A DNA stretch of 64,000 nt from Armatimonadota bacterium. Its GTDB lineage: Bacteria > Vulcanimicrobiota > JACPDS01 > JBDRKI01. The position numbers and the translations under genes were made by a program. This document shows positions 711 through 23,731 of this stretch, piece after piece. The stretch spans positions 1 to 64,000 of the forward strand of contig JBDRKI010000054.1 in assembly GCA_043814095.1 (NCBI GenBank), written 5' to 3'. The notes below the pieces were generated by a model. The model was given only the letters and a program-made list of their open reading frames with translations. It searched no databases and was not told the origin of the DNA. Positions within the stretch are counted from its first letter, which is position 1. The number at the start of each line of letters is the position of its first letter.

Positions 711-959
711 TTAACCAAGGAAAGATCTGGTTTTATCGGCTATACTCTGATTCTGTTTAGTCTGTGACTGGAAGCAAGCAATTGCCGCCTCTTTCATGGT
801 ATTAATAGCATCATTTATTGCCTTCATCTGTTCTGCTCTTTTTTTCCAGTAATCATTATAAGCTGAATATTCATTGTCACCGTTTTGAGAGCTTCCTACC
901 GATCCTGAATAATGATTATGATAATCAGCGTGAGCAGTTTGTATTGCGTTATCTCCCAT
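711..959 (-). CDS. 82-aa hypothetical helical protein; candidate filament/needle subunit or export substrate
   Basis: GGTGA RBS; polar N-terminus, amphipathic Q/N/A-rich C-terminus; cotranscribed with 990..1232 behind the repeat operator. Confidence 0.7.
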   Translation of the reverse strand: MGDNAIQTAHADYHNHYSGSVGSSQNGDNEYSAYNDYWKKRAEQMKAINDAINTMKEAAIACFQSQTKQNQSIADKTRSFLG

Positions 960-989
960 TTAAATCACCATCTTTCCTAGTTTGTGCTA

Positions 990-1232
990 TTAACCACCGA
1001 GAATTCCTTCCCATTTTTTATAAACAGCATCCTGCTGTTTAACAAAACCAAGATGTAAATCCTGCTGCTTGTTTAAAATACCGAACTGTGTTTTTGCCAG
1101 CATCTGCCAGTTATCATAGGCATATTTGTGTGACATTGCAGCACCTGTCACTAATGTACTGTTAGCAGTTAAATAATCTGTAACTGCTGCCAGCCACTGC
1201 TGGGTCTGAATTGTTTGACCGTAGAATTGCAT
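990..1232 (-). CDS. 80-aa hypothetical helical protein; candidate filament/needle subunit or export substrate
   Basis: Strong GGAGGTG RBS; no signal peptide; Q-rich; first gene behind the operator at 1305-1345. Confidence 0.75.
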   Translation of the reverse strand: MQFYGQTIQTQQWLAAVTDYLTANSTLVTGAAMSHKYAYDNWQMLAKTQFGILNKQQDLHLGFVKQQDAVYKKWEGILGG

Positions 1233-1304
1233 ACTACAGCACCTCCTTGTACTCTATTCTTGACTATATTATGCCATATAAAGGGGGGAAAGTAAATAAT
1301 ATTA

Positions 1305-1345
1305 TGTTACAAATTTGTTAAAAAAATGTTAACAAATTGTTAACA
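1305..1345 (-). promoter_or_regulatory. 4 x 11-bp direct-repeat operator (TGTTAACA core), copy 1
   Basis: Units start at 1305, 1316, 1327, 1338; -10-like CATAAT on minus strand at 1268-1273. Confidence 0.8.
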
Positions 1346-1505
1346 TTTTGGACCTATTGAGGATATAATATAGATAGAAAACATAAGGAAAATCAGTTAA
1401 AATTAGCTAAAAATCGTTATTTTAAAGAAAAATTTTGATAATTTATTTGGCAATAAATTCTTTATATTTAAGGATTATTTAAAAATTGATTCTTAAGTAA
1501 TATCT

Positions 1506-1920
1506 CTAATAAATATCTGGCTTAAAAGTATCTGGATTTTTCAGCCATTCCAATGCTTTTCTTACAGTATTCTCGCTTGATCCTATAAGTACGCTATCAG
1601 GATTATCGGGATCAGGCCTGTTATCAGCTGTCTTATAAGGGCATTCTTCTGCTTTTTCAAAAATTATATATTCGTCTCTCCCAAAATTGCATCTGCCGTT
1701 TTCTTCTTTCTTTATAATATGTTCTTCCATTATTAAATCTTTTAGAGAAGTATTGAGTTTTTTAATATTAGAAAATTCCTTAACCCCTATCTTGTATTCT
1801 TCATTATCAACCTTACCGTATTTATAGGAGGTAATATAAAAAGAGCTCCCTTTTTTATCAATACGAAGATCTAAGTCCTTAGACTGAAACTGCAACACTT
1901 TGCCTCGTTTACCCGGCTTG
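1506..1920 (-). pseudogene. Frameshifted C-terminal part of the second transglutaminase-like unit
   Basis: SKDLDLRI...VRKALEWLKNPD..IY matches unit 1 SEDLDLRI...VRKALEWLNDPD..IY; frame joins if the A8 run at 1921-1928 were A7. Confidence 0.75.
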
Positions 1921-4761
1921 TTTTTTTTCGGACCGGATAGTTTCTTCTTCTTTTATTTCCCTATCCATCCAGTAAAAAGAGGATGTATCAACAATAAACT
2001 TTCCTTTTTGAGAATCATTTACTTCAATAACGGCATGCCCTTCGGCATTGCCGTACCATTCCGCGGCTTTTCTTGTCCATGCTCTCATCTTTCCAATCCA
2101 TATGCCTAATTCCTTTTTATATTCTTCTTCTGTTTTTTGAGATGCCTTTTCCGGCTTTTCAGGATTATCCCCTATTTTTTTATAACGCAAAGCCCAGTCT
2201 TTTTTAAAAGAGCTTACATATTTTGTTTCTATGCCGGGATTTACGGCTTTAAATAACGCCTGGAATACTTTAGCATTTTCAACACACCCGTTGGTGCTGG
2301 CTGAAGCAAGTATTTTTTTGGCAGACCACTCGCAGGCATCTCTCCCTCTACCCCTATGATTTATATTTTTATTCATGAATTTAAGGACATTTAAAACCTG
2401 TCCTTTTGTCTTATCTTCCCCTTCGTTGGGCATTTGTTTAATAATAGAAACAGCCGAATCAAATATTTTGTTTTCAATATCCGGAATATTTATCTTTTCA
2501 AGTTCTGTTATTTTATCTATTTTTATATTATTCTTACCGTAGAAGCTTTTTATATCATCATAATATATCTTCATTTTTAATAAATATATTAAGTTTAAGA
2601 AATCTTCATTCATAAAGCTCGTTTTATTTAAAATATAGTCAGGAGATATTTTAGATATATCTTCTTTAAAAAGAACCATCATAGCATCTGCTTGAGGTTT
2701 TTTTGAGCGAAAATCACCTGCACATAAATATAAATTAATAAGGCTGTTCAGCATCTCCTCTTTTTGCTTTTTATCCATATTTGAAATAATAGCAGGATTT
2801 GTAAGAATACTAGTCTTTTTAAGCTTAATCAGGCTCCAGATCAGCTTTGATTTTGCCTCATAAATCATCTTGCTTAAAATAGCTTCCCTGTCTTTTTTAT
2901 TAACAACTGTAAACCTTTCGGTAAAATCTTCTGTAACTTCATTTTTTCCTATTTTACTATCGTTATTTTTATCAAACTGCTTAAATGTTTGGGGGAAATC
3001 ATAAATATTGTTATTTATAGAATTGCCCATAACGCCTCCTGAAAGGAATATAATTAATAGGAGAATGGCAATAAAAGAATTATAACCAATACGCGATTGT
3101 AAGTCCTTTTGCTTTTTCATATAAATATTCGCCTTATAATTATCGGGATCATTAAGCCATTCTAAAGCTTTTCTCACATGATCGGTTCTCATTCTTTTTT
3201 CGTCTGTGTAAAATCTATAAGCGCTTTTTGCATAAATTATGCATTCATCCTCGCCGCATTTAAAAACACCGTATCCCGGCTTACTTGAAGTTCCGTTAGA
3301 ATTATCTCCTTCTCGCTTTGTTGATGATTCTTCTTTTTTAATAAGAGACGGTTTTAAATTCTTAAAAGATTTGTCTTTATAAGCAAAGTTCTGTATATAA
3401 TCGTTAACTTCTTCAATAGTAGAAGCTTTGAATTTCTTCCTGCATTCTTTTTTATCAATACAGCGGTAATTATAATGCAGCACATAAAATTCGCCGTTTA
3501 TCTTTACAATGCGCAGATCTAAATCCTCGGATTTAATCTGCCGGACAGCACCCTTTCTACCATTAATTTTCACCTGCATTGTTTCTTCTTCTTCTATTTT
3601 CTGCACACCGGTCTCCTGAAAATTGCTGGTATTAACAATAAATATAGAATCTTCCCCTTTATCCCAGGTTTCCTTTTCATAAACCTCTATAACAGTATGC
3701 CCCCCTACGCTGCAAATACTTTTATTCAAATTTTTCTTTTCTTCAGTATCTACCCCAGTCTTCATAAGCCAAGTATTGGTTTTTTCTATCCAGTCCTGTG
3801 TCGCCTTAATCTTCTTCTCTTCTGTTTTTAAATTCTTAAAATTTGGTCTTCCAGGTTCTCCCTGAACATGTGCAAGACGTAGAGCCCATTCCTTTTTAAA
3901 AGAATGTATAAAATTACAATCTGTCTTTGGATCTATTTTTTTCAACAACTCAAAGAAACACCTTGCAGCCTCACCACAGCCGCAAAAATTGCCGCCGGCA
4001 AGTATCTGCTTTCCTGACAGAGCGCATTTATCTCTCCCGTCCCACTCATTGCCCTTTAAAGTTTGATTCATAAACTTAAGAATATTTAAAACCAAACTTT
4101 TAGTTTCTGTTTCTTCTGTTGAAGGCATAAATTTTATTATATAAACAGAGGCATTAAATATGGCTTCTTCCATTTTAGAATATGAAAAAGAACTGTCTTC
4201 TAGAATATCAATTTTATATTTATTATCAAAAGGAATATTGTTTTTTGCCAGAAAATCTTTCATATCATCATACTGTTTTTTTATTTTATAGAAATACTGT
4301 AACGCATGAAAGTCCTCCCGCAAAAAGCCTGTTTCCTTATTATTCAAAATCTTCTTTGCAAAATTTATTCTATCCAAATTAATATCTTCTTTTGCAAGAA
4401 AAGGCATGGCATCTATACACGTTTTTTTCCATTTTTTAACACTATCGGATCCGTCATCACGCACATTCTTATAAAGTTCGATAATTCTATACCTTAGTTT
4501 TTCCTTAGCGCTGGAAAACATAGCCTGCAAAATGCCTTTTCTTTCTATATCATCCAGTATTATAAAGTTTTTGGCAAAATCCTTATTTATTTCTCTTTCT
4601 TCTATCCAGTTATCTTTATTTCCGTCAAATATAGAATCTTCAAAACTTATTAATCTGTTCTTAAGGAATTCAAAATCCTGAGTATAAGCGGGTTTTGTTT
4701 TAAAAATAAAAGAAGCATTCTTTGAAATGACAGGATAATGGACATTAACATCTATCTGCAT
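1909..4761 (-). CDS. Tandem fusion of two EF-hand + transglutaminase-like (Cys-His-Asp/Asn) units; candidate effector(s)
   Basis: GCGEAARCF/GHTVIEV/IVNTS and GCVENAKVF/GHAVIEV/IVDTS; EF-hand-like DGNKDNWIEERE and DKNNDSKIGKNE; internal AGGAGG RBS + ATG at 3030. Confidence 0.65.
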   Translation of the reverse strand: MQIDVNVHYPVISKNASFIFKTKPAYTQDFEFLKNRLISFEDSIFDGNKDNWIEEREINKDFAKNFIILDDIERKGILQAMFSSAKEKLRYRIIELYKNVRDDGSDSVKKWKKTCIDAMPFLAKEDINLDRINFAKKILNNKETGFLREDFHALQYFYKIKKQYDDMKDFLAKNNIPFDNKYKIDILEDSSFSYSKMEEAIFNASVYIIKFMPSTEETETKSLVLNILKFMNQTLKGNEWDGRDKCALSGKQILAGGNFCGCGEAARCFFELLKKIDPKTDCNFIHSFKKEWALRLAHVQGEPGRPNFKNLKTEEKKIKATQDWIEKTNTWLMKTGVDTEEKKNLNKSICSVGGHTVIEVYEKETWDKGEDSIFIVNTSNFQETGVQKIEEEETMQVKINGRKGAVRQIKSEDLDLRIVKINGEFYVLHYNYRCIDKKECRKKFKASTIEEVNDYIQNFAYKDKSFKNLKPSLIKKEESSTKREGDNSNGTSSKPGYGVFKCGEDECIIYAKSAYRFYTDEKRMRTDHVRKALEWLNDPDNYKANIYMKKQKDLQSRIGYNSFIAILLLIIFLSGGVMGNSINNNIYDFPQTFKQFDKNNDSKIGKNEVTEDFTERFTVVNKKDREAILSKMIYEAKSKLIWSLIKLKKTSILTNPAIISNMDKKQKEEMLNSLINLYLCAGDFRSKKPQADAMMVLFKEDISKISPDYILNKTSFMNEDFLNLIYLLKMKIYYDDIKSFYGKNNIKIDKITELEKINIPDIENKIFDSAVSIIKQMPNEGEDKTKGQVLNVLKFMNKNINHRGRGRDACEWSAKKILASASTNGCVENAKVFQALFKAVNPGIETKYVSSFKKDWALRYKKIGDNPEKPEKASQKTEEEYKKELGIWIGKMRAWTRKAAEWYGNAEGHAVIEVNDSQKGKFIVDTSSFYWMDREIKEEETIRSEKKQAG

Positions 4762-4806: not shown

Positions 4807-7209
4807 TTACTTATCCAGCAACTTTATCATTTCTTTCAGGTGTTCCATTGTCTCTTTATCTATTTTTATGCCTTTTTTAGCGGCATTTGATAAAGCCTGA
4901 GCTATTTTGCTTTTTATTCTTTTTATGCTTTCCTTTGCCGCATCATTAGCTTCCTCATGATATTTCCCCTTAGAAATATCATGAAGTTTCTCAATATGAA
5001 ATTTTTGAAGCTTCTGCCTGAAATCGCCTATCTTTATTTCTTTTTTACTGTCCAGTTCCGACCCTATGCTTTTTTCCACTTCTTCAAACAACTCTGTCAG
5101 TTTGAATGCATCTTCTTTTTTATTATACCTCAGCTCGTTATCGGATATTCTTTTAAGCTTATCAGGGGAGAAGATTTTGTCTAAAACTTTTCTCTGCATA
5201 CCGCCCACTGTTTGCTTAACATTCATATTTATTTTGTTTGCAAACTTAGGACTGAAATTATAAAGGTTGGAATTCAAAACTTCTTCCAGTAAAAATTTTA
5301 CAGCTTCTTTCTGTTCTTTACCCGGTACCGGTTCATAAGGCGTTTTATCTTTCAGATCCCCTATGTTGCCCCTGTTATAATAAACACCGCCTATATATTC
5401 AGAAGCAAGATTTAAACCTTTAGTAATCTTGCCGAATCCTTTATAAAACATATCTCTGAACTTTTCATATTTTACGCCCTTTTTCTCAAAGTCAGATTCA
5501 AATCTTTTCCAGTAGTTTTTAGTTCTTTCTATTAAAGAACTACAGTATTTTAAAGGATTGCCAGCATCGCCAGTATTACAAGATGGATCTAGATTTAAAT
5601 CCTCATCAGTGCCATAAGGAATTTTTTTATCATACATATCTTTTACTATAAGATCCAGGGTATTCTTTTCTTCCTCAACTTCGGTAGCAGTATAAATGGG
5701 CTTATACCCGTATTCTATCGCTTTTTTATCATATTCGCCGGGCTTTAACTGGTAAGCGCCGTCATCTTCCGGATTATAATCCATAATCGAATACGGTACT
5801 CCGTCTTTAGATCTCAAACTGCCTTTGAAATTATGCCTTAAGCCCAGTGTATGACCGACCTCATGAAAAGTTAGAGATGTAAGTCTATCCAATATGCTCT
5901 TATCTATGTATTCCTGTTTGGCTTTTTCGTCTTTTAATTTCTGGTAGTTTTCATCAAATGCCCGGATTTCATCCGGCCCGTAATTTATACTGTCATAACC
6001 TATTGCAATATCCGCCGCGTAAATCTCTCCCGTAAAAGGATTAGACATGGAAGGCCCTATGGCTGAATACCAGTTGGTATTAAGATGCACAAAATTTACC
6101 GTATTATACCTTATATCAGAGGGATCCCAGTCCGCGTCATCAGGCTGCATATTTACCTGTATAGCCTCATTAATGCCTATTTCTTTAAAAGCTTCATTCC
6201 AAGCTAGTATTCCCTTCTTAACAGCTTCCTTGTATTTTTTAGACACGGTATTTGCCACCCAGAAAACTATCGGTTTTTCCGGTTTTCCTGTTTTCAGATC
6301 AATCCTTCCCAGATCCCAGCGGTTTATATATTCAACTCTGCGTTCTTCGGTTATCACCTTATCACAGTCATCAAAACCGTTTGTAAAATATCCTACTCTG
6401 GGATCATTTAATCTGGGGCGGTAGTCGCTTTCGGGAATCTCTGAAAAACTGAAATTATAGGTGATGCTTAGATTATCTGTGCGGTCATTTTTGGGATTAT
6501 TGTCTTTATCTTTTGGAGAAAAAGCCACAGTAGCTTTTATCTCTGAATTCTTTGAAAAGCTTTTGGGCTTTTCAATATAACTGTCTTCTTTGTTTAATTC
6601 GGCTTCATCTATCCTGTTATGCCACATAAATCTATGGCTCAGTACTTTATCTGCTTCCACTACCAGTAAATCTTTTAAATCTACCACAATATTTCCATTG
6701 TCCGCATTAATCATGCTGATTTTTGAAGAAGCGATCATTGTATCGTTTTCGCTTTTTTCCACGGCTTTATTCAAATTTATATCCCGGCTCCTCGCGTCTG
6801 TTTTTCTTCTGTAAAACTGTAATCTGTCCCCTACTCTTTTAAAATAAACGGGATAATTGCCCATCATTATATCTGCATCCAAGCTCTCATCTTTACTGCC
6901 GCTCACCCTGTAAGCGGAAAGAAGAAACATCTTATTTAACTGATCCGGTTTTATCTCCAATAAAGTCGTATTGCTTTTTTCGTTAAAATAGAAATCAAAA
7001 TAACCTGTTACATGATCAAATGATTTAAGTTTCTGAAAATATTCTTCTGCTGGCTTCTCAATTGTTTCGGCTTTATTAGGATCCCAGTAAGAAAATAACT
7101 GCCCTAATCTGTTAGCGGCATCTGCCGGGGCAGCGGAAGAAAAAGGCTGAGTTCCCTGCTTAGAAATTGTGGTATTGAATTGATCGGATGAGGTTCTATT
7201 AATCTGCAT
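4807..7209 (-). CDS. Zinc-dependent metalloprotease (metzincin, DUF5117/DUF4953-type architecture) without signal peptide
   Basis: HEVGHTLGLRH, SIMDY Met-turn, DPRVGYF, YINRW; start reassigned to ATG 7209 with GGGGGA RBS. Confidence 0.85.
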   Translation of the reverse strand: MQINRTSSDQFNTTISKQGTQPFSSAAPADAANRLGQLFSYWDPNKAETIEKPAEEYFQKLKSFDHVTGYFDFYFNEKSNTTLLEIKPDQLNKMFLLSAYRVSGSKDESLDADIMMGNYPVYFKRVGDRLQFYRRKTDARSRDINLNKAVEKSENDTMIASSKISMINADNGNIVVDLKDLLVVEADKVLSHRFMWHNRIDEAELNKEDSYIEKPKSFSKNSEIKATVAFSPKDKDNNPKNDRTDNLSITYNFSFSEIPESDYRPRLNDPRVGYFTNGFDDCDKVITEERRVEYINRWDLGRIDLKTGKPEKPIVFWVANTVSKKYKEAVKKGILAWNEAFKEIGINEAIQVNMQPDDADWDPSDIRYNTVNFVHLNTNWYSAIGPSMSNPFTGEIYAADIAIGYDSINYGPDEIRAFDENYQKLKDEKAKQEYIDKSILDRLTSLTFHEVGHTLGLRHNFKGSLRSKDGVPYSIMDYNPEDDGAYQLKPGEYDKKAIEYGYKPIYTATEVEEEKNTLDLIVKDMYDKKIPYGTDEDLNLDPSCNTGDAGNPLKYCSSLIERTKNYWKRFESDFEKKGVKYEKFRDMFYKGFGKITKGLNLASEYIGGVYYNRGNIGDLKDKTPYEPVPGKEQKEAVKFLLEEVLNSNLYNFSPKFANKINMNVKQTVGGMQRKVLDKIFSPDKLKRISDNELRYNKKEDAFKLTELFEEVEKSIGSELDSKKEIKIGDFRQKLQKFHIEKLHDISKGKYHEEANDAAKESIKRIKSKIAQALSNAAKKGIKIDKETMEHLKEMIKLLDK

Positions 7210-7283
7210 ATATCCCCCTAAATTAAAATAATACCAGAAGAGGCTTCTTATATAAATATTATATTGCAAAAGGATAAATAAAT

Positions 7284-7324
7284 TGTTGCTAAATTGTTAC
7301 TATTTTGTTAATTTTTTGTTAACA
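7284..7324 (-). promoter_or_regulatory. 4 x 11-bp direct-repeat operator, copy 2
   Basis: Units at 7284, 7295, 7306, 7317; TATAAT on minus strand at 7258-7263. Confidence 0.75.
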
Positions 7325-7356: not shown

Positions 7357-7388
7357 AAATAAGCATACTGTTAAAAGTATGCTTATTT
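7357..7388 (-). terminator. Terminator-like hairpin after flhA
   Basis: AAATAAGCATACT-N6-AGTATGCTTATTT perfect inverted repeat. Confidence 0.7.
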
Positions 7389-15601: not shown

Positions 15602-16486
15602 TCAAGCTATTTCTTCCACCAGTTCGGCGGAAATGCCAGATAATACTAAATTCTGGCCCTTTAAAGCCTCTGAAAGCTCTTTCTCACTGCCTGATATTAT
15701 GTCTTTTACCACTTTTGATGTGGTCTCAAATTTAGCCGAAACTTTGTTATCCTTTACTTCAAGTATGACTTTTAACTGGCCCAGGTATTCCGGGTTCATC
15801 CTTATTACTATTTCTTTATCTTTCGCGCCGACGCTTCTTATAAGTATCCGGTCTATAACCTGCTTTATAACTTCTTCTCTTTTTAAGTCTTTGTTAATTT
15901 TAACTTTCTCAAAAACATTCATTTTCTCGGTGTCTTTTTCTTTTGATTCCATTGTTGAGGCGGAGGTCTTTATTCCTTTTTTCTCCCTTGCCAGTTTATC
16001 AAGAAACATTCCAAGCTGTGATTCATCATGCATCCTAATAAGTTTTTCAACTTCTTTTGAATTAAGGTCATTGATATTCAAACCGCGGGCAGAGAGCATA
16101 TCTCTTAATTTCGCGGTATCTACTTTGCCTGTATCTAAATCTTTTATTCCTATCATCTGTTTTTCCGATATGCTTAATGCGTCGGGATTTTTTATTATGA
16201 GCTGGTATAGGTAATTTAAAAGAGATGAGAGCCCGAAATCGTTCTGCTGCATTGACTTTGCGAGCTTTTCAACCTTCTCCTGGTTTTCTTTTGCCTTGGA
16301 CTCATCATGGATAAGCTTATCCGCCTGTTTCGTGTCTTTTTTTCCCGATGCATCTTCTGTCTTCTCTTTTAAAAGAGAAGAGAACTGTTTGTCGTCTTTT
16401 ACCTGATTTTTCTCTTCAAACTTTATCTTGTTCTCGTTCTGCAGAGAAAAAAGTAAAGATGTAATATCGTTTCTGTTGTTATGCAT
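15602..16486 (-). CDS. fliK: Length-control (ruler) protein with FliK C-terminal domain
   Basis: IRMNPEYLGQLKV...VSAKF...L..AL; synteny. Confidence 0.8.
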   Translation of the reverse strand: MHNNRNDITSLLFSLQNENKIKFEEKNQVKDDKQFSSLLKEKTEDASGKKDTKQADKLIHDESKAKENQEKVEKLAKSMQQNDFGLSSLLNYLYQLIIKNPDALSISEKQMIGIKDLDTGKVDTAKLRDMLSARGLNINDLNSKEVEKLIRMHDESQLGMFLDKLAREKKGIKTSASTMESKEKDTEKMNVFEKVKINKDLKREEVIKQVIDRILIRSVGAKDKEIVIRMNPEYLGQLKVILEVKDNKVSAKFETTSKVVKDIISGSEKELSEALKGQNLVLSGISAELVEEIA

Positions 16487-16512
16487 AATAATGCCTCCTT
16501 GTATAATAATAC

Positions 16513-17091
16513 TTAACCCTGTTCGCTTTTAAATTTTTCGTAATACCCTATTACTTTGACAACATAATTTCTTGTTTCGGAATAAGGCGGCACCCCGCCG
16601 TATCTTTTAACTGCGCCGGGTCCGGCGTTATAGCCGGCAACGGCCAGTTTAACATTCCCGTTAAATCTTTCAAGAAGGCCTTTTAAATATCTTGTGCCTC
16701 CGAATATATTCTCCCTGGGATCATAAGCGTTTTTAACGCCCAGTGATTTGGCGGTTTCGGGCATAAGCTGCATTAAACCCATTGCCCCGCACCATGATCT
16801 CGCTGTCGGCTTAAAGTTGGATTCCTGTTTTATTACAGCCCTTATTAAAGCCGGATCAACCCCGTACTCTTTTGATGCTTCGTTTATAATATCGGCAAAA
16901 TCGCCGGAAACCTGAACGAATTCTTCTTTCTTTGCGACTCCTTCAATCTGGCTAACGCTGTTTAATATAGATGAAAAATTAATGCCTGATGTGGGCACAA
17001 CGGGCTTTGTTGTTTGTTCAAACCCGCCGAATTTGTTCTGTATGCCCTGAATCTTTGAGTTAATCTGCCTCATTCTTTCAAATATGCTCAT
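16513..17091 (-). CDS. Lytic transglycosylase (SLT domain)
   Basis: [31 protein letters not shown]. Confidence 0.95.
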
Positions 17092-17555
17092 GATTCCTCC
17101 CTCTTTTCTTTCCTCGCGTATTTCATTGTAGCCAGCTCGTCTATAAACTTTCTTTCTTCCATGTCCGCTTCTTTATCAAATTCTTCTTTTTTCTTTTCTT
17201 TCAATCTTTCATAAGTCTTGCGCTCCTGCGCGGCTTTAATAAGTATCTCTCTCTGCTTTTCCGCGGCGCGCCTTGCGTCTTGGACGCATATTTTCTGGTG
17301 TTCTATCCTGTCTTCCAGTCTCTCAAGATGCAGTTGGTACATCTTAAGTTCATCTATGTCAAGACCGCCCTTGCTTTTTTTCTTTTTTATATATTCAACG
17401 CTGTTTCTCTTGTCTTCCTCAAGCTTTCTCAGTTTTTCTTCTTCTTTTTCAAGCTTCCTGAAGCAGGCCGCGAGTTTTTCTTTTTCCTCGTCTTCTTTTT
17501 TCTTTTTCAGTATCAATATGTTTTCTAATTTAAATTTAAATTTCTTTGATTTCAT
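17088..17555 (-). CDS. fliJ: Export stalk protein FliJ
   Basis: FKFKLE.IL, coiled coil, E.K..DE.A; follows fliI. Confidence 0.9.
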
Positions 17556-17599
17556 ATAATTATATAATCATCTCTTTTAAATTTTAATATTTTATCAAA

Positions 17600-18931
17600 T
17601 TACCGATCCATTAAATCTATAAGTTTATCTATTGTTTCCTTATAGACACTGGGCTCTGCCTTTTTCTGGCATAAAAATTCATGCACGGACTTTATCATCT
17701 TCTTCGCGTAATCCACATCTGAGTTAGACCCGTCTTTATAGGCGCCTATATTTATAAGGTCTTCTTTTTCTTTATAAGTGGCAAGCACTTTCCGCAAGTC
17801 CCCTGCCGCGTCCTGGTGTTCATCCTGTGCAACTTCCGGGAAAAGCCTGCTCACACTCTCAAGAACATCAATCGCCGGATACCTGTTCTGCGCCGCAATC
17901 CCTCTTGACAGTACGATATGGCCGTCAAGTATTGATCTTACCGTATCGGCAATGGGTTCGTTCATGTCATCGCCTTCCACAAGCACCGTATATATCGCGG
18001 TTATGGATCCTTTTGTAGAAGTGCCGCTGCGTTCCAAAAGCTTAGGCAGAAGCGCGAACACGCTGGGCGTATAGCCACGCGTTGCAGGGGGCTCGCCCAC
18101 GGCAAGTCCCACTTCACGCTGCGCCATGGCAAACCTTGTCACCGAATCCATCATAAACATCACGTCATAACCCTGATTCCTGAAGTATTCGGCTATCGCG
18201 GTTCCCACATAAGCGCCTTTCATCCTTACAAGAGCGGGCTGGTCGCTTGTGGCGCAGACCACTACCGATCTTTTTAATCCTTCTTCTCCGAGATCCGTTT
18301 CTATAAAATCACGCAACTCTCTGCCGCGTTCCCCGACCAGCGCTATCACATTAACGCTTGCGGTTGTATTTCTCGCTATCATGCCAAGGAGCGTACTTTT
18401 TCCTACACCGCTTCCCGAGAAAATACCTATCCTCTGGCCTTTGCCGAAGGTAAGCAGTCCGTCTATCGCCCTTACGCCGGTTGCTATAGGATCTTTTATC
18501 CTGGGCCTTGTTATGGGGTTGGGCGGTGAATTATATATGGGATATTCTTCTTCCGTTTCTATAGGGCCCTTGCCGTCAATGGGATTCCCCAGCCCGTCAA
18601 TAACTCTTCCAAGAAGGCCTTTACCCACATTGACAAGAAGCGGCCTTCCGGTAGTGCGCACCTCGCACCCGGGACCTATGCCCGACATCTCGCCAAGGGG
18701 CATAAGAAGCACTTTATTATTCTTAAACCCCACGACTTCCGCGTGGATGGGTTTTTTGCCCTCTGTGGGGTAAACATTACAAAGATCCCCCACCCTTACT
18801 TCCGGGCCTTCTGATTCCACGATAAGGCCTATCACCTGGCTTACTTTGCCGTGTACTTTTATAAGTTTGGAACTGTGGAGGGCTTTATAATACTTGCTTA
18901 AATCAAGCTGTTTTTCATTCGGATTCTTCAT
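17600..18931 (-). CDS. fliI: Type III export ATPase FliI
   Basis: GSGVGKS Walker A, GERGRE, DSVTRFA, GEPPATRGY. Confidence 0.97.
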   Translation of the reverse strand: MKNPNEKQLDLSKYYKALHSSKLIKVHGKVSQVIGLIVESEGPEVRVGDLCNVYPTEGKKPIHAEVVGFKNNKVLLMPLGEMSGIGPGCEVRTTGRPLLVNVGKGLLGRVIDGLGNPIDGKGPIETEEEYPIYNSPPNPITRPRIKDPIATGVRAIDGLLTFGKGQRIGIFSGSGVGKSTLLGMIARNTTASVNVIALVGERGRELRDFIETDLGEEGLKRSVVVCATSDQPALVRMKGAYVGTAIAEYFRNQGYDVMFMMDSVTRFAMAQREVGLAVGEPPATRGYTPSVFALLPKLLERSGTSTKGSITAIYTVLVEGDDMNEPIADTVRSILDGHIVLSRGIAAQNRYPAIDVLESVSRLFPEVAQDEHQDAAGDLRKVLATYKEKEDLINIGAYKDGSNSDVDYAKKMIKSVHEFLCQKKAEPSVYKETIDKLIDLMDR

Positions 18932-19745
18932 CGTAATTTTTGCTCGCTTCTTCAAAAGCTATCTCAAGTGCTTTTAACTGGGTTTCTATAGTGGCATCCA
19001 CATTGCCCAGGTTAGTGCTTACCCTGCATCCCCCGCGCGTCATAGAAGGGTCTCCTTTTACGGTTAATATTTCAAGGTCCACCATGCCTGCGAAAATTTC
19101 TTTTCTTTCTTCCACTATTTTTTTATCTTCCGGGTTTACATAAACCGTTACTTGTTTTGTGCTTGACCCTTTGGCAAGGTCAACTGCTTTGGTTGCCACG
19201 GCAAGAACAACTTCCGGATTTATTTTAATCTCTTCTTCCAGAATCTCCTTGACACAGGCAAGAGTAAGGTCTGCTATCTCCTGCTTTGCGTTCTCCATTA
19301 TCAGGTTTCTTTCTTCTATAAGCTTATTAAATACGTCTTTAAGATTATCCGCAAGACCCGCAAGCTCCCTGCGGCCTTCGGCTTTTCCTTCTTCTATGCC
19401 CTGCTTCCTGCCTTCCCTCTGAGCTTCTTCAAAACGCTCATGCACAAGCAGCTTGGCAGAGTCAATAATTCTTTTGGCTTCCTGCTTCGCGTTCGCGTAG
19501 AGCTGCGCGACTTTTACTTTCGCCTGCTCCATTATTTTCTGCGCGTCCTGGGTGGCCTGTTTCTCCGGGGTATGAACCTTTTTGGTTATCCCGTCAAGCT
19601 TCTCCTTAACCTGCTTTGTTTCTTCCGGGGTTACGGGAATCTTCGTAAACTCGGCTTTTTTAACATCGATATCTTTTTTAATCGCGGACTTTTTCATATC
19701 ATCCGGCTTTTCCGGTGTACCGCCCACGCCTTTAATAATTGACAC
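18915..19745 (-). CDS. fliH: ATPase regulator FliH
   Basis: GxxxG repeats (EGRKQGIEEGKAEG), VNPED, GGC.V.T..G.VDA. Confidence 0.92.
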   Translation of the reverse strand: MSIIKGVGGTPEKPDDMKKSAIKKDIDVKKAEFTKIPVTPEETKQVKEKLDGITKKVHTPEKQATQDAQKIMEQAKVKVAQLYANAKQEAKRIIDSAKLLVHERFEEAQREGRKQGIEEGKAEGRRELAGLADNLKDVFNKLIEERNLIMENAKQEIADLTLACVKEILEEEIKINPEVVLAVATKAVDLAKGSSTKQVTVYVNPEDKKIVEERKEIFAGMVDLEILTVKGDPSMTRGGCRVSTNLGNVDATIETQLKALEIAFEEASKNYDEESE

Positions 19746-19771
19746 GAGACGACCTCCATGAAACTTTATTC

Positions 19772-20731
19772 CTATTTCACAAACCTTATCTTACCTAAGG
19801 CGACCAGCCCTCTTAATATATTTCTTATCTGCTGCTTCGCGGCTATAATCCTGTCATGGGAAACACTCTCAAGACTCATGGCATCCCCGCGCAGGGCTTT
19901 GGCCGTATCAGGCGGCAGAACATTGTATATCCGTTCGGACAGAACAAGCGAAGAACCCTTAATTGCCATCGCTATGTCCTTAATATCCGCGAGTCTTAAT
20001 ACCTGCTTTAAAGAAGCTTCATCAACCTTTTCAATGTCTTCATACACGCAGAGATTTCCTTCAATATCATTCGCGAGCTTGGGCGCTTCTTTAACTATGC
20101 CTGATATAATCTTCTGTTCGGTATGCCTGTCCGTACCGCTTAATATATCCACCAAACGCTCTTTGCTTTCTTTAAAATCCGCTCTTCCTTCAACTATGTC
20201 TAGCACGCGTTCTTCCAGGACTTTTTCTATCTCCTCTAAAATATCCGGAGGTATTTTATCAATATCGGCAAGCCTCTTTGCAACATCACTCTGTAATGAA
20301 CCCGGAAGCTCCGCCAGAATAGACGAGGCTTTTGAAGAATCAAGCTGGGAAAGTATAACCGCTATGGTCTGCGGGTGTTCTTTCCTTACCACCCTTGCCA
20401 GCTGAGCCGGGTCTATTTTGTATAAAAACCCCAGCGGCTTATTAATAGAAGAAGCTTCAAAAGCAGAATCTTGTGAAGCTCCCTGAGTAAACGGACTAGT
20501 AAAAGTAACTGTGCCTTCTTTTCCGACTTCCAGTATATTAGAGGTCTCCAAGAATTCGTTTAAAATGCTTTCTTTTACTTCTTCCGGTATATTTTTTAGT
20601 TTGTTTAATTCTTCCTGTATCTCGCTCTGGGTTGTGCCCAGATCCTCCATGATTTGATTCGCAACTTCAGGAGGCAGAGTTGTCAGCAATATAGCTGCTT
20701 TCTGTTTGGCCGTAAGATTATCCTTATTAAT
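19772..20731 (-). CDS. fliG: Divergent rotor protein FliG; probable ATT start
   Basis: LTAKQKAAILL in frame upstream of the annotated TTG; EHPQTIA motif; synteny. Confidence 0.9.
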   Translation of the reverse strand: MNKDNLTAKQKAAILLTTLPPEVANQIMEDLGTTQSEIQEELNKLKNIPEEVKESILNEFLETSNILEVGKEGTVTFTSPFTQGASQDSAFEASSINKPLGFLYKIDPAQLARVVRKEHPQTIAVILSQLDSSKASSILAELPGSLQSDVAKRLADIDKIPPDILEEIEKVLEERVLDIVEGRADFKESKERLVDILSGTDRHTEQKIISGIVKEAPKLANDIEGNLCVYEDIEKVDEASLKQVLRLADIKDIAMAIKGSSLVLSERIYNVLPPDTAKALRGDAMSLESVSHDRIIAAKQQIRNILRGLVALGKIRFVK

Positions 20732-20738
20732 TTTAAAT

Positions 20739-22340
20739 TCACCTCTCTCTATCGGCCAACCAGGTGCTCTTTAAAAGTTCAGCAACTCGAGTGGGTTTCT
20801 CCTTTGCCAGCATTTCTAACTTAAAAGCGGTACTTGTTCCTGTATTCTCGCGGTTCCCCGCATCTATCTGTGTAGCTGAGGGTATGTTCTGGGTGTTAAA
20901 CCTTACTTCGGGTATAACATTTCTCTGTCTCAGCATGAAGTATGCCGCTATTATTATCAGCATTAACATCGGTGTTAAAGCAAGTGTCAGGAGCAGTGCG
21001 CTGTTTAACGCGGGATTCGCGCTTACCGGATTAGCGGGTACTTTGCCGCTTATCAGATTTTCTCTCATATTCTGGAATAAAGCAGATGAGAAAGGTATGC
21101 TTACAACAGCTACTTTATCTCCTCTTGCTTCATCTATGCCGATAGCGCCTGCCACTAATTCTTTAATATTGCCTGCTTCGCTCGGCTGGAGGTTGTCCAC
21201 CGCTACGCTTGCCGTTATTCTCTTAATTTCCCCGGCGGCCGTTACAGTTCTTTTTGTAACTTTATCTACAGCGTATGTAGACTTATCGGACTTCTTCACA
21301 TATTGACCTTGAGATCCTTTTAAGTCTGTTGCTCCTCCTATCTGAGTAGCATCTTTGGCTTCGGGCATATTGGAGAACGATTCCTCGGAAGTATCTTCCT
21401 TGGCTTTTACCGTGCCCTCTACATTGGCGGGACCGCCGTATGTTTCTGATGTCATATCGCTCTGTGAGTTATCAAACTCAACATTTAAAGCTACGGTATA
21501 TTTGTTGGGGTCCAGCACGCCGTTTAATGCTTCTCTTACTTTTTCCTTGAGTCTATTCTCGTAGGCGATCGCTTTCTCCTCCCCAACCGGCTGCATTGCC
21601 ATGCCTTCTTTGCCGAGGTATTTTGTGTCAACGGCGTAAGGAACGCCGTCCATTCCTATAATCTTAACGTTTTCCACCGGCAGGTTGCGTACTGAGTTTG
21701 CCACAAAGTGGGCAATACCTGCAACCTGAGCGGGATTTAATCTTTCATAACCGGGCTGGAGTTTTACCATAACCGCGGCTGTTGCCTGATTATCATTTCC
21801 GAAAAGTACTTCTTTAGGGGTAGTGATTTTAACTATGGCGTCCGCGACACCCTGTATCTCTCTTATGCCGTATATAAGCTGGGCTTCCAGTTTTTCTTTA
21901 TTGTTCTGCTCCAGTTCCTGAGGAGACTGGGGCATAAAACCCTCTTTTGGCGCGGATATCGCAACAGGAGTCCTGGGCAGGCCGTATAAAGCAAGGTCCA
22001 TCCTGGCTTTATTTAACTGCCCGGGAGAAACTAAAATAGTTCTTCCCGTAGTATCAATCTCATAAGAGATTTTCATTGTCCCCAGTTTATCCGCTATAGC
22101 CTTAACGTCATTGGGGTTAAGCTCGGAATAAAGAGGAACAAAAGTGTTGACTTTAATAAATACATTGATAATTAAAGCCAATGCTATAATCCCCACTATC
22201 ACCGAGGTGCCTATGAGTTTCTGTTTCGGCGTAAGCGACTTGAGTTTATCAAGCAGCCCTCCGAAAAAGGAACCCGCGCCCTGAGGACCCTGGGTGGGCA
22301 GTCCGCCCGTTCTTAAATTTGTTTTGATATTAGTAGCCAT
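20739..22340 (-). CDS. fliF: MS-ring protein FliF
   Basis: Two TM helices, ARMDLA..GLP, ATAAVMV, V.NL..ENV.I, GID..RGD.V.V. Confidence 0.93.
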   Translation of the reverse strand: MATNIKTNLRTGGLPTQGPQGAGSFFGGLLDKLKSLTPKQKLIGTSVIVGIIALALIINVFIKVNTFVPLYSELNPNDVKAIADKLGTMKISYEIDTTGRTILVSPGQLNKARMDLALYGLPRTPVAISAPKEGFMPQSPQELEQNNKEKLEAQLIYGIREIQGVADAIVKITTPKEVLFGNDNQATAAVMVKLQPGYERLNPAQVAGIAHFVANSVRNLPVENVKIIGMDGVPYAVDTKYLGKEGMAMQPVGEEKAIAYENRLKEKVREALNGVLDPNKYTVALNVEFDNSQSDMTSETYGGPANVEGTVKAKEDTSEESFSNMPEAKDATQIGGATDLKGSQGQYVKKSDKSTYAVDKVTKRTVTAAGEIKRITASVAVDNLQPSEAGNIKELVAGAIGIDEARGDKVAVVSIPFSSALFQNMRENLISGKVPANPVSANPALNSALLLTLALTPMLMLIIIAAYFMLRQRNVIPEVRFNTQNIPSATQIDAGNRENTGTSTAFKLEMLAKEKPTRVAELLKSTWLADRER

Positions 22341-22372
22341 AATTATTCACGCCCCTTTATGAATAAATTAAA

Positions 22373-22690
22373 TTATATCTGCATCTGCATCAGCGTTTTG
22401 AAATCCATCGCCAATGAGCTCATGACTTTCGTTGCCAGTTTTAAAAGCACATCTGCTTTCGCGTTTTCAATTGAAATTCTATGCAGATTGTCAATATCTC
22501 CCGTAGCAAGATCTCCCGCCAGTTTGTCGGGAGCCGCAACGGCTTCCGTTACTTTGGATAATTCATTCGTTAAGAATGATGCAAAACTGCCTTCTCCCGA
22601 AGCAACGGGACTCGTTGAATTCTGTGTAAAGATACTCGAAAAATCGCCTAACGGCTGTATCGGTTGTATCGGTAAAAACGGACTACTCAT
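22373..22690 (-). CDS. fliE: Basal-body protein FliE
   Basis: SFASFL, LATGD..NLH, C-terminal MQI. Confidence 0.9.
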   Translation of the reverse strand: MSSPFLPIQPIQPLGDFSSIFTQNSTSPVASGEGSFASFLTNELSKVTEAVAAPDKLAGDLATGDIDNLHRISIENAKADVLLKLATKVMSSLAMDFKTLMQMQI

Positions 22691-22705
22691 ATTAAATCCC
22701 CCTCC

Positions 22706-23161
22706 TTACGCGTTTCTTCCTATATCTAACGCTCTCATTGCCATATATTTTGTAGCGTCAACAACGGCGGCATTTGCTTCATAAGCTCTGCTTGCCGTTA
22801 TGAGGTTTGTCATTTCTTCTATTATATTAATGCTGCTTTTCGCAACATACCCTTTCCACTTGCCTTCTGTTATCGCAAGCGGGTTGTCGGGATCATATAC
22901 ATATTTAGTTTCTGAATCTACTTCCGTAATACCTGCAACTTCGACGCCCGAACCGGATGAAAGACCGGAGCCCATGGATGCCTGCACGAAAGGAGGCAGG
23001 AACTGCGCGAAAGTCGGGGCCCCTTCAGGCCTTATAATCGCAACCTGCTTCTTGCTTCCGGGAACATTGCCGTGAGCTATATTGTGGCTTATAACATCCA
23101 TCTGGGTCTGGGCCACATTCATTCCCTGTGCCGCTGCGTCAAATGATTTAAATATACCCAT
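22706..23161 (-). CDS. flgC: Proximal rod protein FlgC
   Basis: YDPDNPLA, GYV, EMTNLITASRAYEAN. Confidence 0.95.
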   Translation of the reverse strand: MGIFKSFDAAAQGMNVAQTQMDVISHNIAHGNVPGSKKQVAIIRPEGAPTFAQFLPPFVQASMGSGLSSGSGVEVAGITEVDSETKYVYDPDNPLAITEGKWKGYVAKSSINIIEEMTNLITASRAYEANAAVVDATKYMAMRALDIGRNA

Positions 23162-23182
23162 AAGATTCCTCCTTAAACACCA

Positions 23183-23575
23183 TTAACCCTGGAACATGCT
23201 AAGTACGGTATTTAATCTAGAAAACATTTTTCCAATACCCTGTGAAACTATAGTCTGGTACCATATCTGGTTCTTCGCGAGATTTGACATCTCTGTATTA
23301 ATATTAACTTTACCGCCTGTGGAGTAAACGGCCGGCTGGATGCTTGCCAGATCATTGAGAATCATTCCTCCGTTATATGAGGCAAGCTGGCAGCCGTTAT
23401 TGTTTTCCGCCTGCGCGATATAATCTTTCATAATATCTTCAAACGCAACCGCGCGTGAAGTATAATTAGGCGTATTAATGTTAGCAATGTTATTTGATAT
23501 AACATCATTGCGCAGGCTTGCCGCGTCCAGCGCTTTTGTTAATATTTCCAGATTCATGTTGCTGAAAAGATCCAT
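23183..23575 (-). CDS. flgB: Proximal rod protein FlgB
   Basis: SNNIANINTPNY, V....EM..LAKNQI.Y; ATG 23575 after AGGTGG. Confidence 0.93.
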   Translation of the reverse strand: MDLFSNMNLEILTKALDAASLRNDVISNNIANINTPNYTSRAVAFEDIMKDYIAQAENNNGCQLASYNGGMILNDLASIQPAVYSTGGKVNINTEMSNLAKNQIWYQTIVSQGIGKMFSRLNTVLSMFQG

Positions 23576-23690
23576 AATTTTTACACCACCTTTTGTACTT
23601 TTATAGTACAAACATATATGTAATAATACACAACTTTTACCCCTCCCGAGAGAGGTGTTCTTTTCTTCTGTCTATATAATACAACATTTA

Positions 23691-23731
23691 TATTAACATT
23701 CTGTTACAAAAATGTTAACAAATTGTTAACA
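23691..23731 (-). promoter_or_regulatory. 4 x 11-bp direct-repeat operator, copy 4, upstream of the flgB operon
   Basis: Units at 23691, 23702, 23713, 23724; -10-like TATTAT on minus strand at 23676-23681. Confidence 0.8.

Follow-up and report, generated by a model that had tools for sequence, protein, structure and literature searches.

A conserved flagellum-derived gene cluster in an Armatimonadota bacterium that probably encodes a non-rotating machine

What does a bacterium do with a flagellar basal body and export gate when the genes for filament, hook cap and stator are not found in its genome? This question is raised by a stretch of 64,000 nucleotides (the window; positions 1 to 64,000 of contig JBDRKI010000054.1, here C54, assembly GCA_043814095.1) from an Armatimonadota bacterium, in which a Pfam search placed 19 flagellar-type genes at 7432-23611 on the minus strand. 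We call this cluster, together with its relatives, system B. An earlier note on this DNA had listed an export gate, an ATPase complex, rings, a rod, fliK and a lytic transglycosylase, and the Pfam search recovered each of them in its place.

All genes and operator arrays given below lie on the minus strand, and the genes are listed in their direction of reading. The cluster opens with the proximal rod genes flgB (23183-23611; Flg_bb_rod, 34.6 bits) and flgC (22706-23161; Flg_bbr_C, 46.7 bits), followed by fliE (22373-22690; FliE, 47.4 bits), the MS-ring gene fliF (20739-22340; YscJ_FliF and YscJ_FliF_C) and fliG, which spans 19772-20689 when counted from the first ATG, GTG or TTG. Because the fliG frame is open to 20770 and its extension encodes the usual N-terminal helix, an ATT start, which stands behind GAGAGG, is probable. 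Next come fliH (18915-19745; FliH, 85.5 bits), the export ATPase gene fliI (17600-18955), fliJ (17088-17555; FliJ, 71.4 bits), an in-operon gene for an SLT-domain lytic transglycosylase (16513-17091; SLT, 108.8 bits), the ruler gene fliK (15602-16486; Flg_hook, 48.3 bits) and a gene for a 273-aa axial protein of the FlgE/F/G family without a D2 domain (14583-15404; LlgE_F_G_D1). The remaining genes are fliM (13394-14326; FliM and FliMN_C), fliN (13081-13413; FliMN_C, 93.6 bits), fliO (12570-13067; FliO, 54.9 bits), fliP (11766-12554; FliP, 263 bits), fliQ (11488-11754; Bac_export_3), fliR (10710-11480; Bac_export_1), flhB (9584-10687; Bac_export_2, 404 bits) and flhA of the system B clade (7432-9552; FHIPEP, 825 bits). 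Every core gene is single-copy, and the window holds the sole export cluster of the genome. The operon slots that had been described as empty are indeed so, with no ORF of at least 60 aa in the usual places of flgD, fliL, cheY, flhF, flhG, motAB and fliA.

The export proteins were compared with the NCBIfam models for flagella and injectisomes. FlhA scored 792.9 against a flagellar cut-off of 772.1, while its SctV score of 612.5 stayed below 692.25. FlhB passed in the same way (377.4 against 349.25; SctU 338.3, below 358), as did FliF (152 against 129.75; SctJ 48.9, below 161.95); FliP passed the fliP equivalog and failed SctR (181.8, below 208.6), and FliI passed FliI_clade2 (675.2 against 629.8). 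In the FlhA tree four SctV rows were set apart with a support of 100, so the view that the parts are flagellar-like and separate from injectisomes held. The 273-aa axial protein passed the FlgEFG subfamily model (142.9 against 70.25) and reached none of the FlgE, FlgF and FlgG equivalog cut-offs; it is a subunit of the distal rod or else of a mini-hook. Its gene is kept in 23 related loci.

The system extends beyond the window. Another contig (C55) carries a second fliK (fliK2), a gene for an FlhB-C protein, flgF, flgG and flgJ, and this second locus was kept in 14 of the 14 loci examined. The window itself holds one rod/hook-like gene, as had been noted, and part of the system lies outside it.

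The absence of filament, hook-cap, junction and L/P-ring genes had been noted for the window, and it extends to the whole genome, the completeness of which is estimated at 98.97%. Genome-wide searches gave no match for Flagellin_N, FlgD, FlgI and FlgH (L/P rings), FliS or FlgM. FliD_C reached only 13.5 bits, under its cut-off; the best MotB_plug score was 11.5 bits, which is no match; and MotA_ExbB gave 0 matches at E values up to 0.01, so that no protein of the MotA/ExbB/TolQ family was found. Four matches each were obtained for Flg_bb_rod and Flg_bbr_C, and since all of them are rod or FlgE-like proteins, the genome has no protein of the FlgK or FlgE type. Of a flagellum, therefore, the export gate, the ATPase complex, the MS and C rings and the rod proteins FliE, FlgB, FlgC, FlgF and FlgG were found, and the hook (FlgE/FlgD), FlgK/FlgL, flagellin/FliD/FliS and MotA/MotB were not. 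A set of flagellin, hook-cap, junction and stator genes elsewhere in the genome would have spoken for an ordinary flagellum, and no such set is there. Chemotaxis genes, which had been named alongside, are partly present, as two CheW-type matches and CheA-like genes; that they work with type IV pili is only a guess.

Downstream of flhA lie genes for a met-zincin of the DUF5117+DUF4953 type (4807-7269), for a 950-aa protein whose two halves resemble each other and which contains a hydrophobic segment (1909-4761), for a 130-aa paralogue of the middle part of that protein (1506-1898; 34 bits, E 9.6e-9) and for two small proteins, p80 (80 aa, 990-1232) and p82 (82 aa, 711-959). The proteins after flhA had been called signal-less, and inspection of the N-termini by eye, including that of the zincin, agreed with this. 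The true start of the zincin is probably an ATG 20 codons inward, because the TTG has an operator array 15 bp in front of it. The 950-aa protein has no Pfam match, and the Atlas offers a weak lead towards a transglutaminase-like fold. The p82 frame is an orphan with a composition similar to that of p80, and the p80 profile does not match it. The zincin and 950-aa genes are absent from 55 of the 55 related loci examined; the two are lineage-specific passengers that may or may not be substrates, and the zincin is only a candidate cargo. In a metatranscriptome run, 13 of 17 aligned contigs were at least 99% alike, and pieces of the RNA library with 0-2 mismatches fell on fliR, fliM/N, the flgE-like gene, the zincin and the 950-aa gene, both observations being made without a silent-stretch control.

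These genes share an operator with the cluster. Rows of three to four (G/T)TAACA boxes in an 11-bp phase stand ahead of flgB (four boxes, 23691-23729), the flgE-like gene (four TTAACA boxes, 15536-15576), the zincin gene (four TTAACA-type boxes, 7284-7322) and p80 (four TTAACA boxes, 1305-1345). The array upstream of flgB indicates where the first transcription unit has its promoter region, and such arrays occupy at least four of the five promoter regions of the cluster as well as the promoter of the C55 locus. The shared operator is thus real, but it is not private: arrays occur at 65 places genome-wide, against 0 in five shuffles, and those of the cluster belong to this large regulon, with about 60 places elsewhere. 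Terminator-like hairpins were found between the flgE-like gene and fliM (12 pairs, 14532-14561), directly 3' of flhA (13 pairs, 7357-7388) and 3' of p82 (13 pairs followed by a T run on the minus strand, 659-689).

The torque and chemotaxis motifs of FliG and FliM had been described as lost. For FliG we used the list of charged torque-helix residues from E. coli work. At the conserved Arg the FliG of the window has Asp, and at the first acidic residue Gly; the Arg column holds Asp or Glu in all 19 B rows, as compared with Arg in all 12 rows from true flagellar (A) loci of the phylum. The N-terminal CheY-docking peptide was not found in the window FliM by motif count, and the motif was counted in 49 of the 56 outgroup rows, in 3 of the 4 A rows (and seen by eye in the remaining one) and in 0 of 25 B rows. 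The docking peptide is gone, and in FliG one charge is the opposite of the usual one and one acidic residue is missing, but the FliG motif is not lost as a whole: B FliG keeps the conserved Lys and, for the most part, the acidic pair, and its C-terminal domain is strongly conserved. These differences agree with a non-rotating machine, and the kept residues and domain would also fit a partner of some kind pushing on FliG.

To place the cluster, 41 genomes of the same phylum were compared; most are fragmented assemblies, probably metagenome bins, and absences among them are to be read against completeness estimates. By score and gene order the flhA loci were sorted into A, B and a more reduced type C. 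FHIPEP was present in 41 of 41 genomes, with B-type loci in 31, the present genome among them, C-type loci in 8 and A-type loci in 15, and B or C in 39 of 41. Gene order was kept over 30 loci, FlhA identity across families reached up to 69%, and the position of the SLT gene was kept in both B and C loci. The markers of motility followed type A: flagellin occurred in 14 of 15 genomes with A and 0 of 26 without, strong MotB_plug matches likewise in 14/15 and 0/26, FlgD in 13/15 and 0/26, and FlgI in 15/15 and 0/26; weak MotB_plug matches of 27-29 bits were seen in 3 of the 26. Among the 26 genomes without A, 24 gave three to four Flg_bbr_C matches and a 69%-complete one (G037) gave none, as compared with 6-9 in genomes that also have A. 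In FlhA trees B formed one clade (SH-aLRT 94) and B with C another (99), and in the tree of FliP, FliR and FlhB the B clade had a support of 100. Fifteen genomes have the reduced system next to the true flagellar set, and 14 of these also have flagellin. The synteny in relatives that the earlier note had proposed to examine was thus found, and a system so conserved, and present next to a true flagellum, is not a relic. Since it is kept across the phylum even beside a normal flagellum, system B most likely does something other than swimming.

The comparison of the 41 genomes also defined p80 as a family. Its profile was found in 27 of 41 genomes in 1-7 copies, often in tandem, and the C-terminal half is conserved. 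A small acidic protein, u10, was found in 26 of 41 genomes, always as one copy, and adjoins p80 even in loci where the pair is detached from flhA; by profile search it is absent from this genome. The AF2 model of p80 predicts one helix over residues 3-79 (pLDDT 82, pTM 0.40). The protein has the size of a needle subunit (SctF in injectisomes) and is predicted to form a single long helix, and it has no sequence match to PDB chains (best E at least 0.8). Both p80 and u10 are absent from three B genomes of one family (f9) and from all C genomes, so p80 cannot be a universal substrate. By its position, its copy number and analogy, p80 is the best candidate for an exported subunit.

We consider, with a probability of roughly 0.6, that system B is a flagellum-derived and probably non-rotating machine, the type III gate of which exports something other than flagellin, p80 being the best candidate. 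The gene set can build an MS ring of FliF and a C ring of FliG, FliM and FliN, together with the export gate of FliOPQR, FlhB and FlhA and the ATPase complex FliHIJ. The rod would consist of FliE, FlgB and FlgC from the window and FlgF, FlgG and the rod cap FlgJ from C55, with the SLT enzyme cutting the cell wall; the parts list is completed by the 273-aa axial protein of the FlgE/F/G family and a pair of rulers of the FliK type. Basal body and rod would then assemble without turning, and p80 would leave through the gate either to be secreted or to serve as the subunit of a thin distal structure, with the chaperone-like u10 adjoining p80 in most lineages and not in this genome. Secretion and effector delivery by system B are our inference from these parts.

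An envelope structure, such as an anchor, a scaffold or a membrane-tube or vesicle device that exports only its own rod and axial parts and no cargo, would account for several of the same facts. The conserved set is almost wholly structural, the zincin and 950-aa genes are not conserved alongside it, and roles of type III cores beyond flagella, in membrane tubes and a hat-shaped complex, are mentioned from other work in 10.1101/2021.09.03.458937. No outer-membrane component was found for system B, C54 has no secretin and the four secretins of the genome sit on other contigs, which leaves no recognised route for release outside the cell. However, the u10-p80 module after flhA, with p80 in multiple copies, resembles a late substrate and its helper rather than a basal-body part, the presence of two rulers and a further FlhB-C protein points to retained substrate switching, and the group-3-type sigma factor in the second locus of most B lineages is like late-gene control; we regard a cargo-free structure as unlikely.

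It is more improbable still that system B is a working flagellum, the filament and stator of which have diverged beyond recognition, for example into a filament of p80-domain proteins and an unrelated ion channel acting on FliG. Proteins of about 250 aa with a p80 domain in one genus (g5) have, by eye, a flagellin-like N-terminus and short internal stretch, flagellin genes are often multi-copy and in tandem as p80 genes are, and B FliG keeps a well-conserved C-terminal domain with the Lys and the acidic pair. Chthonomonas calidirosea is moreover stated to be motile in one account (PMC7509429), given which a genome with only system C may belong to a motile organism. Against this, hhalign of the p80 profile with the phylum's flagellins gave probabilities of 0.03% and 0.15% (below 1%), the stator, hook-cap, junction, FliD and FliS genes are missing as described, the CheY peptide is missing from all B rows, CheW is also absent from 12 of the 24 B- or C-carrying genomes without flagellin, and the 14 genomes with a complete ordinary flagellum beside B argue for a different job. 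A decaying, functionless remnant of a lost flagellum would explain why so many flagellar genes are missing, why the B proteins of this genome have the longest terminal branch (0.51-0.56) in the 13-row core B clade, and why its FliG_C score of 66.1 bits is the lowest among full-length FliG matches. We find this hardly credible: the 19 window genes and the five on C55 are all intact with tightly packed ORFs, the same set and order recur in 30 other genomes from 15 families, 14 genomes have an intact flagellum as well, the B-specific FliG residues are conserved rather than random, and the RNA library, read without a silent-stretch control, holds matching contigs.

Among known systems, the flagellum of the Terrabacteria fla/che type shares with system B the order flgB-flgC-fliE-fliF-G-H-I-J ... 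fliM-N-O-P-Q-R-flhB-flhA, the rod proteins, FliG and the equivalog assignments of FlhA, FlhB, FliI, FliP and FliF. It differs in that system B has no flagellin, FlgD, FlgK/L, FliD, FliS, FlgM, FlgH/I or MotAB, its operon has no FliL, FlhF, FlhG or CheY, its FliG has Asp or Glu for Arg and its FliM has no CheY peptide, whereas the in-operon SLT gene, u10, p80, the second FliK and the FlhB-C protein are additions; system B is also a clade separate from the phylum's own flagellum. The aphid symbiont Buchnera likewise has a flagellar basal body without flagellin or motor proteins, which has been proposed to export proteins. That body is the remnant of the only flagellum in a shrinking symbiont genome and keeps the hook and the L/P rings, whereas system B appears to be an ancient paralogue passed down vertically, with its own accessory genes and in hosts that are probably free-living; in 14 of the 41 genomes it is found next to a full flagellum. 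A Buchnera-type origin, by loss from a sole flagellum, does not fit system B, as its clade is separate from A and the two occur together in 15 genomes. Like the injectisome, system B is a type III apparatus related to the flagellum in which the motility parts are lost, but no SctC, SctD, SctF, tip or translocon genes could be recognised with it, and its proteins fail the SctV, SctU, SctR and SctJ cut-offs. The secretin-less NF-T3SS of Myxococcales, described in a passage of PMC3459982 as being without FlgBCDEK, FliE, FliG, FlgH and MotAB, shares the lack of a secretin; FlgB, FlgC, FliE, FliG, FliF, FlgF and FlgG distinguish system B from these and from injectisomes. The hat-shaped complex that Kaplan et al. 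(2021) report from tomograms of many species with and without flagella (10.1101/2021.09.03.458937) is imaged, with no dedicated gene cluster tied to it in that account, whereas system B is a dedicated, complete gene set known from genes alone.

In our literature search no paper describing system B was found. Under the rule of Abby and Rocha (2012), as given in PMC3459982, a flagellum is called by at least 10 flagellar genes with FliE/FlgB/FlgC present and no secretin, so that system B would score as a flagellum, and it does not fit the NF-T3SS rule of the same source (a secretin in or with the locus; no FliE/FlgB/FlgC). We suggest tentatively, and with more doubt than confidence, that system B and the reduced system C together form a third ancient class of type III machine, a basal body with a rod that does not rotate, polymerises or secretes p80 with a dedicated chaperone and has been inherited vertically throughout the phylum. 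If so, current detection tools, which score it as a flagellum, would hide it. The first step of the scenario outlined by Abby and Rocha (PMC3459982) is a loss of motility genes with export kept, and system B resembles that step; as a third class, it would represent in living form the intermediate without motility that they postulated between flagellum and injectisome.

The flagellum-like cluster of the window consists of 19 tightly packed genes on the minus strand, running from 23611 down to 7432. When the proteins were scored against NCBIfam models, FlhA (792.9; cut-off 772.1), FlhB (377.4; cut-off 349.25), FliP (275.1; cut-off 217.45) and FliF (152; cut-off 129.75) passed the flagellar models, and the FliI clade 2 model was also passed (675.2; cut-off 629.8). 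The window proteins all stayed below the cut-offs of the injectisome models SctV, SctU, SctR and SctJ, and the SctN cut-off was narrowly exceeded (611.6 vs 604.75). FliM fell below its equivalog cut-off (196.7 vs 219.6), and the FlgE-like protein matched at the FlgEFG subfamily model only. The gate and ring proteins are assigned by NCBIfam to the flagellar side. The genes 3' of flhA encode a met-zincin (DUF5117+DUF4953), a 950-aa protein that had no match in a Pfam search and a 130-aa paralogue of its middle part, followed by ORFs of 80 and 82 aa. Hairpins were found 3' of flhA, of the FlgE-like gene and of the last small ORF, and their positions, combined with those of the promoter arrays, suggest that the cluster and its downstream genes form five transcription units.

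The arrays each contain three to five (G/T)TAACA boxes in a row at 11-bp spacing and are located 5' of flgB, the FlgE-like gene, the zincin gene and the gene for p80, a helical protein of about 80 aa (1305-1345, 7284-7322, 15536-15576 and 23691-23729). All four arrays of this contig fall within the cluster, and a further one precedes fliK2 in a second locus of the genome (C55:15562-15600). In the whole genome, 65 places carry 3-5 boxes at the 11-bp phase, as compared with 0 in five shuffles. Through the arrays, the cluster and its neighbours are connected to a single large regulon that extends beyond the flagellum-like system. The earlier note described effector genes as co-regulated with the cluster; the arrays do not mark out the neighbours as effectors.

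Several features of individual genes were recorded. The frame of fliG (19772-20770, minus strand) extends without a stop for 27 codons 5' of its first ATG/GTG/TTG, and the N-terminal helix typical of FliG is encoded there. At about 10 nt 3' of a GAGAGG that overlaps the fliF stop codon there is an in-frame ATT, and fliG probably has a non-canonical start at this ATT. The 950-aa ORF (1909-4761, minus strand) has the appearance of two similar genes joined into one: the end of its first half resembles the C-terminus of the 130-aa paralogue, a hydrophobic segment similar to a signal peptide comes next (at about residue 570), and a Cys...His pattern is present in each half. A weak Atlas lead connects this ORF to transglutaminase-like cores (scores 0.86-0.88, TM under 0.45). 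The genes immediately 5' of the cluster (23857-26380 and 27565-28686, minus strand) encode two peptidases of the M16 family and a pilin-like protein (PilX_N/DUF7305), for which no link to the flagellum-like system was seen. Among sequencing runs, words from the cluster occurred in small shares (0.10 and 0.05) in two only, one metatranscriptome and one DNA run, from groundwater. Thirteen of the 17 RNA-run contigs placed on the cluster were at least 99% alike, and eight pieces among those listed, each with 0-2 mismatches, fall on fliR, fliN/fliM, the FlgE-like gene, the zincin gene and the 950-aa gene. As this run has no silent-stretch control, only presence in an RNA library is shown, and the parts of the cluster without placed contigs are uninformative.

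The contig of the window is 78.7 kb long, and the window covers its first 64 kb; the assembly has 2.50 Mb in 129 contigs and is rated 98.97% complete. Each core gene is present once in the whole genome, and the window cluster is therefore its only export cluster. Contig C55 has the second locus, with genes for a 496-aa FliK-like protein (fliK2), a 96-aa protein corresponding to the FlhB C-terminal domain, FlgF-like and FlgG-like rod proteins, the FlgJ rod-binding protein and a TPR protein. Whole-genome profile searches found no Flagellin_N, FlgD, FlgI, FlgH, MotA_ExbB, FliS or FlgM; the best score was 11.5 bits for MotB_plug and 13.5 bits, below the cut-off, for FliD_C. The two terminal domains common to rod, hook and junction proteins gave four matches each, all explained by FlgB, FlgC, FlgF, FlgG and the FlgE-like protein. 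The genome has four secretins, all on contigs other than that of the window. The absence of flagellin, FlgD, FlgH/I and stator genes, which had been noticed for the window, thus holds for the genome; chemotaxis genes do not follow this pattern and are represented by two CheW-domain matches. One of these (G000:C84:10507-10908, G000 being the genome of the window) lies within a 683-aa CheA-like frame with one in-frame TAG; the frame may be two genes or one that is broken, or the TAG may stem from an error in the assembly. The genome also encodes detached gate domains: a 458-aa protein that consists solely of the C-terminal domain of FlhA (FHIPEP positions 322-653; contig C4, L217:6190-7566, minus strand) and a 422-aa protein in which the last subdomains of FlhA (positions 455-654) are fused to a C-terminal domain of FlhB (contig C67, L218:5432-6700, minus strand). 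Similar partial FHIPEP matches occur in most of 41 genomes of the phylum, with about 15 per genome in genus g14, and we know of no described family of stand-alone export-gate cytoplasmic-domain proteins.

These 41 genomes, G000 included, represent one phylum, 17 family codes and 29 genus codes. FHIPEP was found in 41/41 and flagellin in 14/41; among the 31 high-quality genomes, the numbers were 31 and 9. All 55 full-length flhA regions were fetched, their ORFs were scored with the window proteins, and the loci fell cleanly into three kinds. System B, the window type, has FlhA scores of 795-1062 bits to the window protein and the window gene order, including the in-operon SLT and short FlgE-like gene, and is present in 30 other genomes and G000. 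System A (553-665 bits; 15 genomes) has ordinary flagellar neighbours, and system C (509-566 bits; eight genomes) is further reduced with the SLT kept; FliG_C had no match in the six genomes with C only. The two genomes without a full-length B or C gene are 75% and 69% complete, and one of them has the second locus. Flagellin was detected in 14 of the 15 genomes with system A, FlgD in 13 and FlgI in all 15, and each in 0 of the 26 without it. Strong MotB_plug matches were confined to the same 14 genomes as flagellin, and three weak ones (27-29 bits) lie outside them. Rod/hook C-terminal domains number 6-9 per genome with A and 3-4 in 24 of the 26 without; G037, a 69% complete genome without A, has none. 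The constant element of the phylum is system B or C, which persists even in genomes with a full flagellum. In 14 second loci, the flgF-flgG pair was always present, flgJ in 13, fliK2 in 12 and the FlhB C-terminal protein in nine. A sigma-70-family gene (regions 2, 3 and 4) follows flgJ in 12 of the 14; G000 has the TPR gene at this position and no such sigma gene adjoining. In wider genome contigs, a search for related loci found only ordinary flagellar FlhA at no more than 49% identity and one partial match at 61% (L082). One genome (G003) has an A-type locus (L113) with FlgD and FlgI but without flagellin, MotB plug or A-type FliG; here a true flagellum may be on its way to loss, while system B is intact.

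The switch proteins of system B were compared with those of system A. The window FliG was aligned with solved FliG structures, 12 A-type and 18 other B-type sequences, using the torque-helix residues known from E. coli. The Arg of this helix is present in 12/12 A rows; 19/19 B rows have Asp or Glu at the position, with Pro immediately before it. B-type FliG mostly retains the conserved Lys and the acidic pair, with Gly at the first acidic position in the window FliG, and a second Arg column is variable in A and B alike. The C-terminal domain of B-type FliG is well conserved overall, a pattern that indicates selection, perhaps for another partner. In FliM, the N-terminal CheY-docking peptide was found in 49 of 56 outgroup and three of four A-type sequences (the fourth by eye), in 0 of 25 B-type sequences and not in the window. 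These differences in FliG and FliM would fit a changed role of the machine.

All trees were quick searches with SH-aLRT support only, and their outgroup rows were the best tblastn matches to the window FlhA (26 of 80 loci in the 82-row tree, 17 in the 53-row tree), a biased sample with whole flagellated phyla missing. In the 82-row FlhA tree, one starred branch (99) parted B and C from the 15 A rows and 26 outgroup flagellar FlhA of a dozen phyla. With four SctV in the 53-row tree, SctV stood apart (100, starred), and support was 99 (starred) for B plus C, 94 for B and 91 for A plus outgroups. The FliP+FliR+FlhB tree of 41 rows contained a B clade and a C clade (both 100, starred), which were not joined, on a backbone without resolution, and a single clade of all A, B and C rows of the phylum was not rejected by the AU test (p 0.185). 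A deep placement of B outside all flagella was dropped, since neither this backbone nor the AU result gives it any backing. We make no claim that system B predates the phylum; the trees would allow a split from A within the phylum or earlier. The internal branching of B follows the family codes, and we take the trees to show that B is separate from A, an old lineage passed on vertically.

The accessory proteins of system B include p80 and u10, an acidic, chaperone-like protein of about 105 aa. Genes for u10 and p80 (80-90 aa, one to three copies) were found 3' of flhA in 18 and 17 loci, respectively, the latter including the window. By profile, p80 is present in 27/41 genomes in 1-7 copies, often in tandem, and u10 in 26/41, always single; the pair adjoins even when detached from flhA (G007:C157, G013:C11 and G019:C23). 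G000 has p80 (990-1232), and a genome profile search found no u10. Here the zincin, 950-aa and 130-aa genes stand between flhA and p80, in a stretch of 33-34% G+C as compared with 40-47% for most of the operon. None of the three has a homologue in any of 55 related loci, and the zincin and 950-aa protein were rejected as conserved effectors for this reason. The C-terminal half of p80 is strongly conserved, and an AF2 model from 16 sequences predicts one helix over residues 3-79 (pLDDT 82, pTM 0.40). The predicted u10-p80 complex scored 0.03 against a mark of 0.32, which speaks neither for nor against binding. No Atlas match to p80 reached 0.8, and the p80 and u10 profiles found nothing under E 0.4 among PDB sequences. 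In genus g5 (L138, L140, L141, L143 and L144), the short p80 is accompanied 3' of flhA by two longer classes, of about 250 aa and 260-350 aa, with the p80 domain C-terminal after low-complexity Pro/Ser/Ala/Gln-rich regions. The 250-aa class has a flagellin-like N-terminus and a 13-residue stretch by eye only, without hhalign support; against four flagellins of the phylum, hhalign gave probabilities of 0.15% for this class and 0.03% for p80. Identity of p80 with FlgM was rejected, because the genome has no FlgM Pfam match, p80 reaches seven copies per genome and G000 has no sigma factor beside flgJ.

Textbooks describe two machines that are based on the type III export gate, the flagellum and the injectisome. 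Conversion between them is an open question, and we know of no living intermediate that keeps rod and C ring. When tested for membership, system B falls outside the motility flagella, the injectisomes and the secretin-less systems of Myxococcales. Our reading, to which we give a probability of about 0.6, is that system B is a non-rotating, filament-less export machine that does not serve motility and exports something other than flagellin. A basal body and rod would be retained with a working type III gate, rulers and switch, and p80 would be the leading candidate for the exported protein in most lineages; in p80 as the exported protein we have less confidence than in the export machine as such. 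System B could instead be a structure that exports only its own parts, an explanation that we consider unlikely; the conserved p80 genes 3' of flhA speak against it.

That system B is a cryptic motile flagellum is more doubtful still. The distribution over the 41 genomes indicates that the motility parts belong to system A. The rule of Abby & Rocha (PMC3459982) would nevertheless class system B as a flagellum, which may be why it went unnoticed. Decay of a flagellum could account for the missing filament, hook cap and stator; B or C is constant and occurs together with a full flagellum, which rules out decay in its simple form and leaves decay in general very improbable. A literature search outside subscription journals yielded no description of a flagellar system lacking flagellin in this phylum. 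Papers on the phylum mention 'complete flagellum pathways' or motility (PMC5629041, PMC7509429), and 'flagell' does not occur in the main text of the genome paper on Fimbriimonas, whose supplementary tables list motility and secretion genes (PMC4072686).

With FHIPEP in 41/41 genomes vs flagellin in 14/41, counts of 'flagellar genes' over-predict motility in this phylum. System B is a conserved system across the phylum in which the rod, the MS and C rings and the rulers are kept, and the filament, hook cap, P/L rings and stator are lost. Its presence beside a normal flagellum in some genomes makes testable the question of what role a flagellar basal body has when it no longer drives swimming.
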